Origin: Escherichia virus TH41
Length of the DNA: 64,000 nucleotides
Reading direction: 5' to 3' (one strand)
Sequence record: MT446412.1
The position numbers and the translations under genes were made by a program. Position 1 is the stretch's first letter. Each line of letters opens with the position of its first letter. The notes under the pieces were generated by a model, which saw only the letters and a list, made by a program, of their open reading frames with translations, made no database searches and was not told where the DNA came from. This document shows positions 16,408-33,524 of the stretch, one piece after another.

Positions 16408-19122
16408 ATGCAAGAATTTTATTTAACTATCGAACAAATCGGTGACAACCTACTCGAACGATATATTGACAAGAATGGTCATGAACGTGTTCGTGAAATC
16501 CCTTATGCTCCATGCTTGTTTATGCACGCCCGCGAAGACCAAGCTGCAAAGTATACAGACATCTATAATAAAGGTTGTGTGAAAAAAGAATTCGATTCCA
16601 TGCGTGATGCATCCCAGTGGATGAAGCGAATGAATGACATGGGTCTCGAAGCTATGGGTATGGACGACTTTAAACTCGCATACTTGTCCGACCGTTACCC
16701 ACACGAAATCAAATATGATTCAAGTAAAATCCGTGTTGCTAACTTCGATATCGAGGTGACATCTCCTGATGGGTTCCCTGAACCGTCTGAAGCACGTCAC
16801 CCTATTGACGCCCTGACGCACTATGATTCGGTAGACGATAAATTCTATGTCTTTGACCTTTTGGGCTCACCATACGCCACTGTGGAGCAATGGTCTATTG
16901 ATATTGCTGCTAAGCTGCAGGAAGACGGTGGTGATGAAGTCCCGGAAGAAATCCTGGAAAAAATTGTTTATATGGCTTTCGATTCAGAAGAAGAAATGCT
17001 CCAGCAGTATTTGGTATTCTGGAACGAGAAAACTCCGGTTATGTTAACTGGTTGGAACATCGAGAAGTTTGATATTCCATATATCTACAACCGCCTTAAA
17101 AATGTATTTGGTGAAGCTACAGCAAAACGTCTGAGCCCACATCGTCGTACAAAAGTTAAGGTCATTAACAACGGCTTTGGCGAAGAACAAGAAATCATTC
17201 AGATTCTGGGTATCTCTGTTCTGGATTATCTGGACCTGTATAAAAAGTTCAGCTTCACAAACCAACCGTCTTATTCGTTGGATTATGTTGCGGAATCTGA
17301 ACTGGGTGTTGGTAAACTCCCGTATGATGGCCCGATTTCTAAACTGCGCGAATCAAATCACCAGCGGTATATTTCTTATAACATCATCGACGTTTATCGT
17401 GTTGTGCAGATTGACCGTAAGCGACAGTTTATTAACCTGAGTCAGTCAATGGGTTATTACGCAAAAATGCAGATTCAGTCTGTATTCAGCCCAATCAAAA
17501 CTTGGGATGCGATTATCTTTAACAGCTTGAAGACTCAAAACAAAGTTATTCCGGAAACCAAATCGCATGTTCGCCAATCGTTCCCTGGTGCATTTGTTAA
17601 GGAACCTATTCCGAACGCATACAAATATGTAATGAGCTGTGACTTAACATCTCTGTATCCGAGCATCATCCGACAGATTAACATCAGTCCAGAAACGATT
17701 GCCGGGTCATTTGCGCCAGCCCAGATGTATGAATACATCGCAGGAACTGCTGACCGTCCATCTGATACATTTAGTTGTGCTCCAAATGGTATGATGTATT
17801 TTAAAGATGTTGCGGGTATTATTCCGACAGAAGTCACCAAGGTGTTTAATCAGCGTAAAGAGCACAAAGGCTATATGCTTGCGGCTCAACGTAATGGTGA
17901 ACTGATTAAGGAAGCTCTGCGTAATCCAGGAACTGGCACAACCGAACCAGAAGTTGATTATCGTCATGACTTTGATGACAATATGAAAACGGCCCTGCAT
18001 GGTCTGAATCAAACAGTCCTAAATGGTATGCTGTACAAAGCGCAGATGGAAGAAGTTGCAGGCATGACCGCACAGATTAACCGTAAACTGCTTATCAACA
18101 GTTGTTATGGCGCTCTGGGTAATATCTGGTTCCGTTACTTTGACCTGCGAAATGCAACCGCGATTACATCTTTCGGACAACTTGCACTGCAGTGGATTGA
18201 GCGTAAAGTTAACGAATACTTCGATAGTGTTTGTGGTACAAGCGGTGAAACTTATGTGTTCTATGGCGATACTGACTCCATTTATATCCAGTGCGATAAC
18301 CTGATTAAAAAGGTTGGTGGCGAATCTAAATTCCGCGATACAAACCACCTGGTTGACTTCATGGACAAGTTTGCGAAAGACCGTCTGGAACCGGCAATCG
18401 ATAAAGCTTTCCGTGAGCTGGCTGAATACATGAACAACAAACAGCACCTTATGTTTATGGACCGTGAGGCGATTGCATGTCCTCCGCTGGGTTCGAAGGG
18501 TGTGGGTGGATTCTGGACGGCGAAGAAGCGTTATGCGTTGAACGTGTACGATATGGAAGGCACACGTTATGCTGTTCCAAAATTGAAAATCATGGGTCTG
18601 GAAACTCAAAAGTCGAGTACTCCAAAGGCATGTCAGAAAGCTCTGAAAGAATGCATCCGCCGTATGCTGCAAGAAGGTGAAGAATCTCTGCAGACATACT
18701 TCAAGGAATTCAATAAGGAATTTAATGAGCTTAACTACATGACCATCGCAGGGGTATCATCGGTTAACAACATCCAGAAATATAATGAAGGTGGTTTCCC
18801 TGGATTTAAGTGCCCGGCTCATATCAAAGGTGTGCTTGCATATATGCGTGCAACTAAAGGTCTGAAGACTGTTCCGCAAATCATGGAAGGGGAAAAGGTG
18901 TATGTACTTCCTCTTAAAGTCGGCAACCCATTTGGTGAAACCGTGATTGCATGGCCATCAGGGATTGAACTCCCGATTGAAATTCGTGACCAAGTCTTGC
19001 AGTGGATGGACTACAACACACTGTTCCAGAAGACTTTTGTCAAACCGTTAACAGGTTTCTCTGAAGCTGCAAAGGTTGATTACGAAAAGAAAGCAACTCT
19101 TTTTGATATGTTTGACTTTTAA
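16408..19122 (+). CDS. 43: DNA polymerase gp43 (family B)
   Basis: 904 aa; exo motif FDIE, polymerase motifs DLTSLYPSII, KLLINSCYGALG, YGDTDS. Confidence 0.97.
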   Translation: MQEFYLTIEQIGDNLLERYIDKNGHERVREIPYAPCLFMHAREDQAAKYTDIYNKGCVKKEFDSMRDASQWMKRMNDMGLEAMGMDDFKLAYLSDRYPHEIKYDSSKIRVANFDIEVTSPDGFPEPSEARHPIDALTHYDSVDDKFYVFDLLGSPYATVEQWSIDIAAKLQEDGGDEVPEEILEKIVYMAFDSEEEMLQQYLVFWNEKTPVMLTGWNIEKFDIPYIYNRLKNVFGEATAKRLSPHRRTKVKVINNGFGEEQEIIQILGISVLDYLDLYKKFSFTNQPSYSLDYVAESELGVGKLPYDGPISKLRESNHQRYISYNIIDVYRVVQIDRKRQFINLSQSMGYYAKMQIQSVFSPIKTWDAIIFNSLKTQNKVIPETKSHVRQSFPGAFVKEPIPNAYKYVMSCDLTSLYPSIIRQINISPETIAGSFAPAQMYEYIAGTADRPSDTFSCAPNGMMYFKDVAGIIPTEVTKVFNQRKEHKGYMLAAQRNGELIKEALRNPGTGTTEPEVDYRHDFDDNMKTALHGLNQTVLNGMLYKAQMEEVAGMTAQINRKLLINSCYGALGNIWFRYFDLRNATAITSFGQLALQWIERKVNEYFDSVCGTSGETYVFYGDTDSIYIQCDNLIKKVGGESKFRDTNHLVDFMDKFAKDRLEPAIDKAFRELAEYMNNKQHLMFMDREAIACPPLGSKGVGGFWTAKKRYALNVYDMEGTRYAVPKLKIMGLETQKSSTPKACQKALKECIRRMLQEGEESLQTYFKEFNKEFNELNYMTIAGVSSVNNIQKYNEGGFPGFKCPAHIKGVLAYMRATKGLKTVPQIMEGEKVYVLPLKVGNPFGETVIAWPSGIELPIEIRDQVLQWMDYNTLFQKTFVKPLTGFSEAAKVDYEKKATLFDMFDF

Positions 19123-24318: not shown

Positions 24319-24522
24319 ATGTATAAATTAGAGAACGTAGTATTTATTGGTTGGTTTGAAAATGGTAATATGTTTACCAAAGAAACCGCGCTGGATGTCA
24401 GTGACAAAAATATGATTGAATGGGTTACAGTGCAGTATGCGGAAGTGAATAATGCGCTGGTTAAAGCCTTTGTTAATGACAATAAAGTTTTTGAATATGA
24501 TGCCCGCATTGAGGAAATCTAA
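24319..24522 (+). CDS. Hypothetical protein (67 aa), paralog of next ORF
   Basis: Shares segment WVTVQYAEVNNALVKAFVND with 24523..24864 (WYVQKTADNYNALVEAFVDG). Confidence 0.5.
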   Translation: MYKLENVVFIGWFENGNMFTKETALDVSDKNMIEWVTVQYAEVNNALVKAFVNDNKVFEYDARIEEI

Positions 24523-26627: not shown

Positions 26628-27656
26628 ATGTCATATATTGATAAAGAATTTGCGGTTAGAGCTTTATCGTATCAACCACGTTATAGAGAAGTCACCGGGA
26701 GCACATTTAAAGCAAACTGTCGTTGCAAGGTTTGTGGGGACTCCCAGAAAGATTCACACAAGGCTCGATTCTGGGCGTATACTAATCCGGCTGATGGCGC
26801 GGTTTACGTGAAATGTTTTAACTGTGACTACTCCACGCATATAAGCAAATACATAAAAGAGTTTGAGCCGGATTTACACTGGGAATATATGGTTGAGAAG
26901 TATAAGGAGAATGCCTTTGGCAGACAACGTAATGAAGTTGCCGAAACTCCGAAAGAACCAGAAAAAACTCCGGTTATCGAAGAGCTTGCTTTTTGTGAAA
27001 GACTCGATACTTTACCAGAAGCGCATCCTATAATTAAGTATGTAAAAAGTCGGTGTATTCCTAGCAATGTTTGGAACCGGTTATGGTTTACAAACAAATG
27101 GCCTGCATTAGTTAACTCCGTTAATCCTGGGACGTATAAGAATGAAACGAATGAACCACGCTTGGTTATTCCTATCTTCAACGGCAAAAAAGAAATCGAA
27201 TCTTTCCAAGGACGAGCTCTTCGCAAAGATGCACCACAAAAATATATCACAATCAAAGCTCACCCAGAAGCTTCCAAAGTCTATGGTGTAGACAAGATTG
27301 ATGAGCGCAAGCGCGTGTGGGTAATGGAAGGTCCGATTGATAGTTTGTTTATCCCTAACAGCATTGCGATAACTGGTGGAACATTGTCATTGGAAGCCGT
27401 TCCTTATCCAGAAACCAGAGTATGGGTAATGGACAACGAACCAAGACATCCGGATACGATTAAACGTATGAAGAAGCTCGTTGAAGCTGGCGAAGCTGTT
27501 ATGTTCTGGGACAATGCACCATGGCATACGAAAGACATAAATGAGATGGTTAAATCAGAAGGAGCAACCCCTGAACAAATCGAATCATATATGGCTGATA
27601 ACGTTGCCCAAGGATTGATGGCGAGAATGCGACTTTCGAAGTACGCAAAAGTTTAG
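26628..27656 (+). CDS. 61: DNA primase gp61
   Basis: 342 aa (same as T4 gp61); N-terminal zinc ribbon CRCKVCGD...CFNCDY. Confidence 0.9.
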   Translation: MSYIDKEFAVRALSYQPRYREVTGSTFKANCRCKVCGDSQKDSHKARFWAYTNPADGAVYVKCFNCDYSTHISKYIKEFEPDLHWEYMVEKYKENAFGRQRNEVAETPKEPEKTPVIEELAFCERLDTLPEAHPIIKYVKSRCIPSNVWNRLWFTNKWPALVNSVNPGTYKNETNEPRLVIPIFNGKKEIESFQGRALRKDAPQKYITIKAHPEASKVYGVDKIDERKRVWVMEGPIDSLFIPNSIAITGGTLSLEAVPYPETRVWVMDNEPRHPDTIKRMKKLVEAGEAVMFWDNAPWHTKDINEMVKSEGATPEQIESYMADNVAQGLMARMRLSKYAKV

Positions 27657-27853
27657 GAAGGGATTCCGGTAAAGTAACCAATAATAGAATGGATATGTTC
27701 CATTGTGACCTGAGGTAAGTGCACCCCTTGTGTTGCGGCGATGGGTACAACCAGTAAGTTCCACAGGAAAACATCAAGAGCTAAAAAGCCCATGATGAGC
27801 TTCTTGTCTTTCTTACTGGTTAATTTCCAAATCTGATAGAATAATGTTCCCAT
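27653..27853 (-). CDS. Small membrane protein (66 aa), paralog of 27862..28059
   Basis: Opposite strand to all neighbours; single hydrophobic helix; GGTGG SD. Confidence 0.5.
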   Translation of the reverse strand: MGTLFYQIWKLTSKKDKKLIMGFLALDVFLWNLLVVPIAATQGVHLPQVTMEHIHSIIGYFTGIPS

Positions 27854-27861
27854 AGTTCCAC

Positions 27862-28059
27862 CTATATAAGGCCGATTAATGCCAGTGAAACATCTACAAC
27901 TGATTCGAGCGCGACGACTGGTAATATAACACCATGTGCCAATGCAATAGGGGCAACAATGAAATTCCAGAGTAGAACTAAACAGAGTACCGAAAGGACC
28001 AGAATCGTTCGCTTACGACTGCCTTTGATGGCTTGAATTAGACTAGATAGTTTTAGCAT
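27862..28059 (-). CDS. Small membrane protein (65 aa), paralog of 27653..27853
   Basis: Strong SD AAAGGAGG 4 nt before ATG; ATAAATA late-promoter-like motif upstream. Confidence 0.55.
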   Translation of the reverse strand: MLKLSSLIQAIKGSRKRTILVLSVLCLVLLWNFIVAPIALAHGVILPVVALESVVDVSLALIGLI

Positions 28060-28075
28060 ACATCCTCCTTTCTTG

Positions 28076-28082
28076 TATTTAT
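28076..28082 (-). promoter_or_regulatory. Late-promoter-like motif (cATAAATA, 7/8 of TATAAATA) upstream of the minus-strand pair
   Basis: Read on minus strand about 17 nt upstream of ATG 28059. Confidence 0.3.
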
Positions 28083-28143
28083 GCTTTAAACCAATACGAT
28101 ATAATTAACATACAAACAACATGAATTGATAAGGAAAAATATA

Positions 28144-28662
28144 ATGGCACATTTTAACGAATGTTCTCAACTGATTGCTGGTGTTGATAAAGCTCAAGGC
28201 GCTTATGATAATGCAATTTTTGAAGGCACTGACCCACTGCAAATTATGCTTGATATGCAGAAATCGTTGCAGGTTCGTCTGGCTAAAGAAAAACCAGAAT
28301 ATAACGAACATCCTGATAACCTGGCGACTGCTGGTGAAGTTGTTACCTGGCTCCGCAACCAGAAAGATTATATTGATGATGAATTCCGTGAACTGATTAC
28401 TGCATTAGGTGGCATGTCCAATGGCGAGAAAGCTGCCTCGGCCGTATGGAAGCCTTGGAAAGCACAACATGGCGAAATGCAGCAAACCCTAATTAATGAT
28501 TTATCTCCTGAAGACCAGCTCGAAATTAAATTTGAGATGATTGATATCCTGCACTTTGTTCTGAATATGTTCCATGGCCTTGGACTGACTGCAGAAGAAA
28601 TCTTTAAATTGTATTACCTGAAAAATGCTGAGAACTTTGCTCGTCAAGACCGAGGTTATTAA
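28144..28662 (+). CDS. 56: dCTP pyrophosphatase gp56 (MazG-like dCTPase/dUTPase)
   Basis: MAHFNEC N-terminus and EIFKLYYLKNAENFARQDRGY C-terminus match remembered T4 gp56. Confidence 0.85.
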   Translation: MAHFNECSQLIAGVDKAQGAYDNAIFEGTDPLQIMLDMQKSLQVRLAKEKPEYNEHPDNLATAGEVVTWLRNQKDYIDDEFRELITALGGMSNGEKAASAVWKPWKAQHGEMQQTLINDLSPEDQLEIKFEMIDILHFVLNMFHGLGLTAEEIFKLYYLKNAENFARQDRGY

Positions 28663-33227: not shown

Positions 33228-33524
33228 ATGTACTACGCATATGTGCTGGTTCACAAAGATAAAGATGGTTTTGAACGCCCATTGGAGTATGATGGAAAGG
33301 TTACCTTATACACCACAAAACCGGGCGCAGAGTATGAACTTGCCAACTATTTATATACTACAAACCGCTATTTACGCATGGGACGTATTGAAACACGGTA
33401 TACTCCCAGAAAATGGTGGTTTGATAAGCGGGAAACAAAAACTGTTTTTCCTACTGAAGAACACGCACGAGAATTGAAATTAGTTTTAGATACTTTATAT
33501 GTTAAGCGAGTAAAATTGGCATGA
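33228..33524 (+). CDS. Hypothetical protein (98 aa)
   Basis: ATG preceded by GAGG; track start 33225 is GTG. Confidence 0.45.
   Translation: MYYAYVLVHKDKDGFERPLEYDGKVTLYTTKPGAEYELANYLYTTNRYLRMGRIETRYTPRKWWFDKRETKTVFPTEEHARELKLVLDTLYVKRVKLA

Follow-up and report, generated by a model that had tools for sequence, protein, structure and literature searches.

Phage T4 and its relatives encode several small proteins of the inner membrane or periplasm, among them the holin T, the antiholin RI and the exclusion proteins Imm and Sp. Another group of holins is gathered in the family GTA_holin_3TM (PF11351), one member of which, TeaA of phage ICP1, has been shown experimentally to act as a holin (PMC7182436). 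Here we describe two small genes, A and B, from the same phage group as T4, which lie in tandem on the minus strand between gene 61 (DNA primase) and gene 56 (dCTPase) of Escherichia virus TH41 (MT446412.1). The stretch analysed, referred to below as the window, comprises 64,000 nucleotides (nt) of this record. The antiholin RI combines a membrane segment at the N-terminus with a C-terminus in the periplasm, which is also the layout that we predict for the products of A and B; holin T, with 218 amino acids (aa) and a large periplasmic domain, is unlike them. Our analysis places A and B in a family of fixed genomic position that extends to T4 itself, and points to a remote relationship with the membrane module of the PF11351 holins.

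Both proteins match a single PHROG profile, phrog_2024, from end to end (A, E = 1.8e-26, residues 1-65 of 65; B, E = 6e-28, residues 1-64). This profile carries the label 'unknown function' in PHROGs, and its members stand in phage records under names such as RB69ORF029w and VR7ORF033w, the latter with a note citing similarity to RB32 ORF030w; some automated pipelines call them 'holin'. A first-pass annotation of the window had held that nothing identifies the two genes. That is not entirely so any more: the open reading frames (ORFs) themselves are not new, the family being already catalogued as hypothetical. No Pfam family matches A or B, and a scan against NCBIfam gave scattered noise only. 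With A as the query, tblastn returned 692 phage records, 684 of them with at least 80% query coverage; B returned 126. A primase at least 60% identical to that of the window is found in 940 phage records and a family match in roughly 800-870, and because these counts are similar, the family appears to be close to universal in the Tevenvirinae and confined to them. An exhaustive profile search through 1.84 billion representative proteins recovered only 16 clusters (at 50% identity) and no bacterial family, and a word-index protein search found close relatives only.

In every T4-like genome that we opened (T2, fPS-65, RB69, CIP9, PEi20, CGG4-1, PM2 and metagenomic T4-like contigs, and likewise T4), a single gene of ~61-74 codons runs against the direction of the early genes and meets gene 61 tail-to-tail. 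The two stop codons usually overlap by 4 bp, and in T4, T2, fPS-65, CIP9 and RB69 the overlap is arranged as in the window. RB49 (Krischvirus), one Slopekvirus and one T4-like Acinetobacter phage do not have the gene here; their gene 61 is directly followed by genes on its own strand. Four distant clusters were traced to their contigs; for two of them, P0106 and P0110, the contig is T4-like and the gene occupies the same locus. Two members come from outside T4-like genomes. P0108 (L031 4001-4210) is flanked by a tail-tip gene and an endonuclease VII gene on one side and by a minor-tail-like gene on the other, on a siphophage-like contig that also encodes a serine recombinase; P0112 (L032 129-308) lies directly upstream of a 352-aa RelA/SpoT-domain gene.

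In the T4 reference record (NC_000866), dam and gene 61 are separated by 310 bp without annotation. This gap contains an intact 66-codon ORF (17738-17938, plus strand; L007 3239-3439), MVQKLMALVNAIKGNKKRIAFTISTMVGILLWNFILSPVAIAHGVNIPVVTLDTFVDLAFALVGLI, preceded by the promoter-like box GATAAATA and the Shine-Dalgarno (SD) sequence AAAGGAGG. Its product is 52% identical to that of A over the full length. The first-pass annotation had assigned dam to this place in T4, which is correct but incomplete, as the T4 locus also includes, next to dam, the ortholog of A that the record leaves unannotated. In T4_ev240 (LR597657; L005 1983-2108), which has no dam, the small gene is reduced to an ORF of its last 41 codons, and the promoter box and the N-terminal codons are gone. 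If the assembly is correct, this suggests that the small gene is dispensable for laboratory growth.

Comparison of family members indicates that A and B are genuine protein-coding genes under purifying selection. As estimated by the Nei-Gojobori method, the ratio of non-synonymous to synonymous substitution rates (dN/dS) is 0.12-0.23 among the A-type genes of Tequatrovirus, 0.22-0.44 among the A genes of Gaprivervirus and 0.05-0.22 among intact B-type genes; the lowest value, 0.05, separates B of the window from that of VR26, their differences being mostly synonymous. Synonymous sites are saturated between the subtypes, and also between B sublineages whose proteins are still ~75% identical. 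Reading frame and length are kept across genera at 25-50% protein identity. Trp31 and Pro37 are invariant across all lineages, Asn32, Ala39, Gly43, Pro47 and Gly63 are nearly so, and position 52 is almost always acidic. With the same position held in hundreds of phages, dN/dS between 0.05 and 0.44 and saturation between subtypes, the two minus-strand ORFs of 65 and 66 aa called from the raw sequence are not chance frames.

The two genes had been taken for a paralogous pair. They are indeed a homologous tandem of one family, and the core that they share was read correctly, as LLWNFIVAPIALAHGV for A and FLWNLLVVPIAATQGV for B; BLASTP aligns 24 residues of the two at 50% identity (E = 2e-7). The pair is better described, however, as two divergent lineages of one gene. 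A is about 48% identical to the RB69 type. B matches T4 in the core only; its closer counterparts, at 75-89% identity, are the single genes found in JS98-type coliphages and in Klebsiella phages (Potts1, Marfa). On these comparisons, the tandem appears to combine a T4/RB69-type and a JS98/Klebsiella-type copy. Local tandem duplication was considered as the origin of the pair and set aside, A being nearest to the T4/RB69 type and B to the JS98/Klebsiella-phage type. The pair may instead have arisen by recombination between phages, or by an old duplication with differential loss.

The two copies have fared differently within Gaprivervirus. Full-length matches to A with at least 80% identity occur in 33 phage records, which is the number of Gaprivervirus records found, and no damaged A was seen in the Gaprivervirus loci that we read. 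The B region is full-length in only nine Gaprivervirus phages. Two of these, VR7 and VR20, carry a frameshift; the others are UPEC01, TH44, P479, VR25, VR26, MN01 and TH15, and the intact ORF was read directly in UPEC01, VR25 and VR26. Various lesions were found in the remaining phages: the 5' half of B is lost in the SP18 group, the 3' half in the EAWsc9 group, an internal deletion marks the TH22 group, and B lacks 26 nt in DK-13 (MT611523) and RZ (vB_EcoM_RZ, MW598459), whose records place a homing-endonuclease gene at this locus. Because B has been lost repeatedly and independently beside an apparently always intact A, the pattern suggests that the two do the same job and are redundant.

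In DK-13 and RZ the stretch between genes 61 and 56 is ~0.7 kb longer, alongside the homing-endonuclease gene, and Yersinia phage P8 also has one annotated; VR7 and T4 have segF just downstream of gene 56 instead. The 61-56 interval looks like a hot spot where mobile endonucleases insert.

Each protein starts with a basic N-terminus that holds five Lys or Arg residues within its first 18 positions; neither residue occurs after position 18. It is followed by one strongly hydrophobic segment at residues ~18-41. A conserved [H/Q/N]-G-x-x-[LI]-P turn and a short helix with acidic charges only complete the chain. AlphaFold2 models place helices at residues 3-10, 14-41 and 51-62 of A, with a predicted local distance difference test (pLDDT) score of 78, and at residues 2-11, 14-41 and 51-62 of B (pLDDT 72), so that the layout is the same. 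Hydropathy and models thus agree on a single strong transmembrane (TM) segment in both proteins, in line with the one hydrophobic helix first noted for each. Based on the positive-inside rule, we predict an inner-membrane protein that spans the membrane once, with the N-terminus inside, the C-terminus outside and a periplasmic tail of ~25 residues. On crude scales, the C-terminal 15-22 residues of A, which include two acidic ones, sum to +4.4 to +6.1 (Hessa), and the C-terminal segment of B is not hydrophobic (Kyte-Doolittle, 0.3). By such measures the tails of A and of the T4 protein seem hydrophobic enough to lie in the outer leaflet of the membrane, and that of B does not. An asparagine in the middle of a TM helix is a classic driver of helix-helix association, and the conserved asparagine within this helix suggests that the protein associates with itself or binds a partner helix. 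A search of solved structures gave only non-significant matches, to the TM4 helix of nicotinic receptors; Foldseek against viral models returned family members only, plus one other 'Holin' at a non-significant E of 1.8.

T4 late promoters follow the consensus TATAAATA at positions -13 to -6, of which -13 is documented as variable and tolerated, and T4 late transcripts run in either polarity (PMC2988020; PMC1524935). The box CATAAATA lies 16 nt before the ATG of A on the coding strand and deviates from the consensus at -13. In every T4-like lineage checked, the gene is preceded by NATAAATA and then by GGAGG (GGAG, not GGAGG, in PM2 and RB69), and the remaining spacer has diverged. The distance from NATAAATA to the start codon is 15-24 nt in the T4-like loci checked and 37 nt in L033-L034. 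PEi20 shares the form found in the window, Marfa-like phages and CIP9 have TATAAATA, JS98 and RB69 have AATAAATA, PM2 has the same box as T4, and CGG4-1 has one variant, ATTAAATA. Within the window ATAAATA is depleted (9 copies observed against 22 ± 4.7 expected from shuffles), and for seven of these nine, an ORF with a preceding SD sequence starts 16-39 nt downstream on the same strand. The ORFs behind these copies include soc, two genes of a minus-strand cluster at the right end, and A. The SD sequence and ATAAATA reported upstream of A are both in place, and given the conservation of the box together with the SD across lineages, its depletion and its placement, the proposal that it is a late promoter is very likely right. 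A is probably transcribed late, from this gp55-type promoter directly upstream.

B has no box of its own, and in phages that have only the B-type gene, that gene carries its own box and a strong SD sequence. Because B is without a box and its weak SD sequence abuts the stop codon of A, the two genes are probably co-transcribed on one late bicistronic message, and translation of B may be coupled to that of A. Two further ATAAATA boxes on the minus strand (24341-24347 and 33348-33354) lie within the plus-strand early region; no ORF of at least 30 codons starts within 80 nt downstream of them. They may be late antisense promoters.

The functional lead comes from remote comparisons. When 21 diverse members of the family were scanned against Pfam, PF11351 was the sole family matched by more than one member: three of the 21 did so (E = 0.03-0.1), each aligning with positions ~66-117 of the 123 in the model. 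The distant member P0112 matches phrog_3427, labelled 'holin', at E = 5e-4. A tblastn search with P0112 led to an 81-residue 'GTA-like holin' of Pseudanabaena phage Pan1 (Pan1_96), through which confirmed PF11351 proteins were reached (Pfam E = 1.9e-15 to 8.4e-24). Of these examples, one adjoins an endolysin gene and one lies near an M15 peptidase gene. We built a holin alignment of 71 distinct homologues from viral contigs, seeded on PF11351 members and selected on the GWRP motif. Comparison of the family with this alignment by hhalign gave a probability of 86%, P = 4.9e-6 and a score of 35.5 over 51 columns, pairing family columns 16-66 with holin columns 72-129 of 149. The score was 11.0 ± 2.5 (maximum 20.2) in 150 full column shuffles, 11.3 ± 2.6 (maximum 25.8) in 150 shuffles that kept the hydrophobic segments, and 9.6 with the reversed alignment. 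Family and PF11351 share a helix with [W/Y]-[N/Q/H]-F-x-x-x-P, followed by a turn of the form G...[L]P, then an acidic residue and finally a short hydrophobic helix that contains glycine. A match to the C-terminal membrane module of PF11351 is thus found by hhalign; profile-to-sequence search was not significant.

Several observations weigh against a holin-like role in lysis. The gathering threshold of PF11351 (24.8 bits) is not reached, the best of the 21 members scoring 15.3 bits (E = 0.03). In the reciprocal search of the 1088 window ORFs with the PF11351 hidden Markov model, A ranked third (E = 2.2) and B about thirtieth, neither significantly, and we therefore treat the link as remote similarity at the profile level only. 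All three confirmed PF11351 proteins have an amphipathic, charged N-terminal domain of ~70 residues that ends in the GWRP motif, which the family, at 57-74 residues, does not have. The basic cytoplasmic tail, R-T-F-E-[RK]-x-K-G, that follows the last hydrophobic helix in PF11351 proteins is missing as well: A ends in ...ALIGLI and B in ...TGIPS. The second hydrophobic segment is weak: in A it is short and carries acidic residues, and in B it lacks hydrophobic character. The last helix probably does not cross the membrane. Class II holins and pinholins have two membrane-spanning helices with both termini inside; here, one strong TM segment is seen on crude scales. In the window, A and B are flanked by the primase and dCTPase genes, and no lysis gene is adjacent; the two distant members on the siphophage-like contig with tail genes and beside the RelA/SpoT-domain gene lie in unrelated settings. 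Late transcription is itself deduced from the sequence only, and a literature search on the ORF names, on T4 small proteins and Ribo-seq, and on T4 late and antisense transcription found nothing on the gene or any family member. T4-type phages already have a complete lysis set in T, E, RI, RIII and the spanins. The classical genetics of T4 r mutants is not known to have placed any locus in this interval.

On these grounds the family should not be filed as a member of PF11351; it is likely a stripped-down relative of the membrane module of GTA/TeaA-type holins. The holin- or antiholin-like function proposed in the first-pass annotation gains some support, from a profile-profile score above all 300 shuffles, and is weakened in that several features of membership fail and the profile-to-sequence comparison is non-significant. 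A possible course of events can be outlined as follows. A and B would be made late, as a bicistronic message from the gp55-type promoter upstream of A. The product would be an inner-membrane protein of ~65 residues with a basic cytoplasmic N-terminus, one long TM helix and a periplasmic acidic amphipathic helix, and the family would have descended by stripping-down from the C-terminal membrane module of PF11351 holins. Late in infection, the protein would use its polar asparagine to oligomerise in the inner membrane or to pair with another helix there, and would then influence the lysis step, as an auxiliary hole-former or membrane depolariser, or by modulating the timing of the T holin. We put forward such action in the inner membrane at the lysis stage tentatively, as the favoured reading, one that falls short of probable. 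A more specific version, in which an overlooked late gene of the T-even phages, T4 included, derives from an ancestral GTA/TeaA-type holin and still serves in lysis as a depolariser that helps to trigger T or as a modulator of lysis inhibition, is doubtful.

Other accounts start from the same features. The protein could be a late envelope accessory unrelated to lysis that blocks or protects a component of the host inner membrane, acting against membrane-acting abortive infection, protecting from lysis from without or excluding superinfecting phages late, which we regard as somewhat unlikely. Many genes in the neighbourhood from 61.x to 56 have accessory or host-interaction roles (dmd, sp, 61.2 and 61.4 are present), the family occurs only in Tevenvirinae and is absent at the locus in RB49, the Slopekvirus and the Acinetobacter phage, its two distant members lie outside any lysis context, and the conserved Trp-Asn of the helix would suit binding of a partner helix. 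However, the T4 exclusion genes imm and sp are expressed early from the opposite strand, and here only a late-type box is conserved on the strand of A and B. The superinfection exclusion suggested earlier therefore fits poorly with the late timing, and neither Pfam nor PHROG matches link A or B to Imm or Sp. Scans of Pfam, PHROG and NCBIfam gave no match to a known defence or exclusion family. Pfam recognises T4_Spackle in genes nearby on related contigs but reveals no similarity of A or B to T4 lysis or envelope proteins, and the only recurrent remote similarity is to the holin family. It is improbable that the helix is instead a signal or signal-anchor-release sequence, cleaved at P-x-A-x-[A/S/T] before [H/Q/N]-G to free an active acidic periplasmic peptide of ~24 residues, comparable to released RI antiholin. 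In the alignment, a proline at -5, a near-invariant alanine at -3 and a small residue at -1 do resemble the c-region of a signal-peptidase I substrate, and the basic N-terminus and the purely acidic tail charges would fit; yet the hydrophobic stretch of 19-24 residues is long for a cleaved signal, the most conserved residues, Leu-Trp-Asn, lie within the helix, an atypical place for conservation in a signal peptide, several members have Thr or Phe at -1, which are poor for signal peptidase I, and the corresponding PF11351 segment is a membrane helix.

A minor virion-associated or ejection protein, made late, packaged in tail or head and helping to form an inner-membrane channel at the next infection, is very improbable. 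Its late-promoter context is common to structural genes and P0108 sits between tail-tip and minor-tail-like genes, but no T4-like genome has a structural neighbour in this region of replication and accessory genes, and B decays freely. No such protein is known from T4 virion proteomes, but searches of those data would have passed over an ORF that is not annotated. Least credible is the idea that the ORFs have no coding function and are by-products of signals in the 61-56 spacer, such as a terminator or promoters of the early strand, or of an antisense RNA against the 3' end of gene 61. A late transcript from the promoter of A would indeed run antisense into gene 61, and fPS-65 has an early-strand terminator annotated inside the 5' end of the ORF. 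Purifying selection in frame, with saturated synonymous change and conserved residues, nevertheless excludes this idea and effectively refutes it for the coding question; length, frame and invariant residues are kept at 25-50% identity, and the strong SD sequence is conserved.

The layout of the locus is given in Table 1. The 1-kb region around the pair is 100% identical to Escherichia phage UPEC01 (MW233709; Straboviridae, Tevenvirinae, Gaprivervirus) and 90-97% identical to VR7, VR20, VR25, VR26 and SP18-like phages. As first described, the pair runs opposite to the surrounding early genes and overlaps the 3' end of the primase gene by 4 bp. Long plus-strand ORFs begin at ~2 kb and continue to ~53.5 kb of the window, and credible long minus-strand genes are found only from 53.5 kb onward; on neither strand do the first 2 kb contain an ORF of at least 110 aa.

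Table 1. Features of the locus between genes 61 and 56 (window coordinates)
Feature	Position	Strand	Remarks
Gene A	27862..28059	-	65 aa; phrog_2024, T4/RB69 type; ortholog of the unannotated T4 ORF
Gene B	27653..27853	-	66 aa; phrog_2024, JS98/Klebsiella-phage type; intact here, decaying in most relatives
Gene 61, DNA primase	26628..27656	+	Context; flanks B
Gene 56, dCTPase	28144..28662	+	Context; 28144 is the annotated start; divergent from A, 84-nt spacer
Overlap of convergent stop codons, B and gene 61	27653..27656		4 bp
Late-promoter-like box CATAAATA	28076..28083	-	Upstream of A; C at -13
SD sequence AAAGGAGG of gene A	28064..28071	-	Read directly
Weak SD sequence GGTGG of gene B	27857..27861	-	Abuts the stop codon of A; no promoter box in the 8-nt gap between A and B

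The spacer between the divergent genes A and 56 (28060-28143) must house both the late box of A and the promoter or promoters of gene 56. The T4 replication origin oriA is annotated just within the start of gene 56. A terminator scan found weak 5-bp stems only. Just downstream of gene 56, Shigella phage SP18 has two tandem soc genes, soca and socb (L003 3208-3673), and UPEC01 has one there; this is a further local tandem close to A and B.

Annotation of the family in public records is uneven. B is mis-annotated as 'DNA packaging ATPase' in UPEC01, SAKp28, MY02 and P8, and other members are labelled 'thymidylate synthase' (SHP1, 04086), 'dCTP pyrophosphatase' (CGG4-1) or 'putative head morphogenesis protein' (BW-1). 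Neighbouring genes in UPEC01 also bear implausible labels, namely 'molybdenum ABC transporter' for ORFs of 49-162 aa and 'major capsid domain-containing protein' for the 55-aa homolog of 61.1.

T4 is among the best-annotated viruses, yet its seemingly empty 310-bp gap between dam and gene 61 holds an intact ORF that is conserved across the T-even phages. Apparently new are, in combination, the T4 copy, which is unannotated in the reference record, the conservation of promoter and synteny across the subfamily, the tandem of two divergent alleles, one of them repeatedly decaying, and the statistical link to one specific holin family. The propagated labels 'DNA packaging ATPase', 'thymidylate synthase' and 'dCTP pyrophosphatase' can be corrected on this basis. 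If the protein does act on lysis in the inner membrane, it would be a new player in lysis timing and lysis inhibition and an unlisted component of the T4 lysis pathway, itself among the oldest paradigms of phage research, and it would represent a holin module reduced to a core of ~65 residues. The adjacent divergent copies, one of which decays repeatedly, amount to a natural experiment in redundancy. Even without a lysis phenotype, the gene would encode a conserved late membrane protein of therapeutic-type coliphages.

Compared with known systems, A and B are closest to the phrog_2024 members of RB69, T2, VR7 and other phages, which have the same position, strand, size, promoter box and SD sequence. 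Elsewhere the family is mostly present in one copy per phage, whereas Gaprivervirus has two divergent types in tandem, both of them intact in a minority of its phages, to which the present one belongs. The PF11351 holins, such as the RcGTA holin and ICP1 TeaA, have a similar membrane module, and late expression is inferred for both them and the family. In contrast to these holins, the family has about half the length and is without the N-terminal amphipathic domain, the GWRP motif, the basic tail and an endolysin neighbour. A similar truncation is seen in Pan1_96 (81 aa), which is 36% identical to P0112, and in its homolog from Dinoroseobacter phage R5C. These proteins combine a basic N-terminus with a W-x-Y...P helix, a PP-L-x-P-L-D turn and a Gly-rich C-terminal helix. 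Pan1_96 also falls below the Pfam threshold; it differs from the family in keeping a short charged C-terminal tail and in coming from unrelated siphophage-type genomes.

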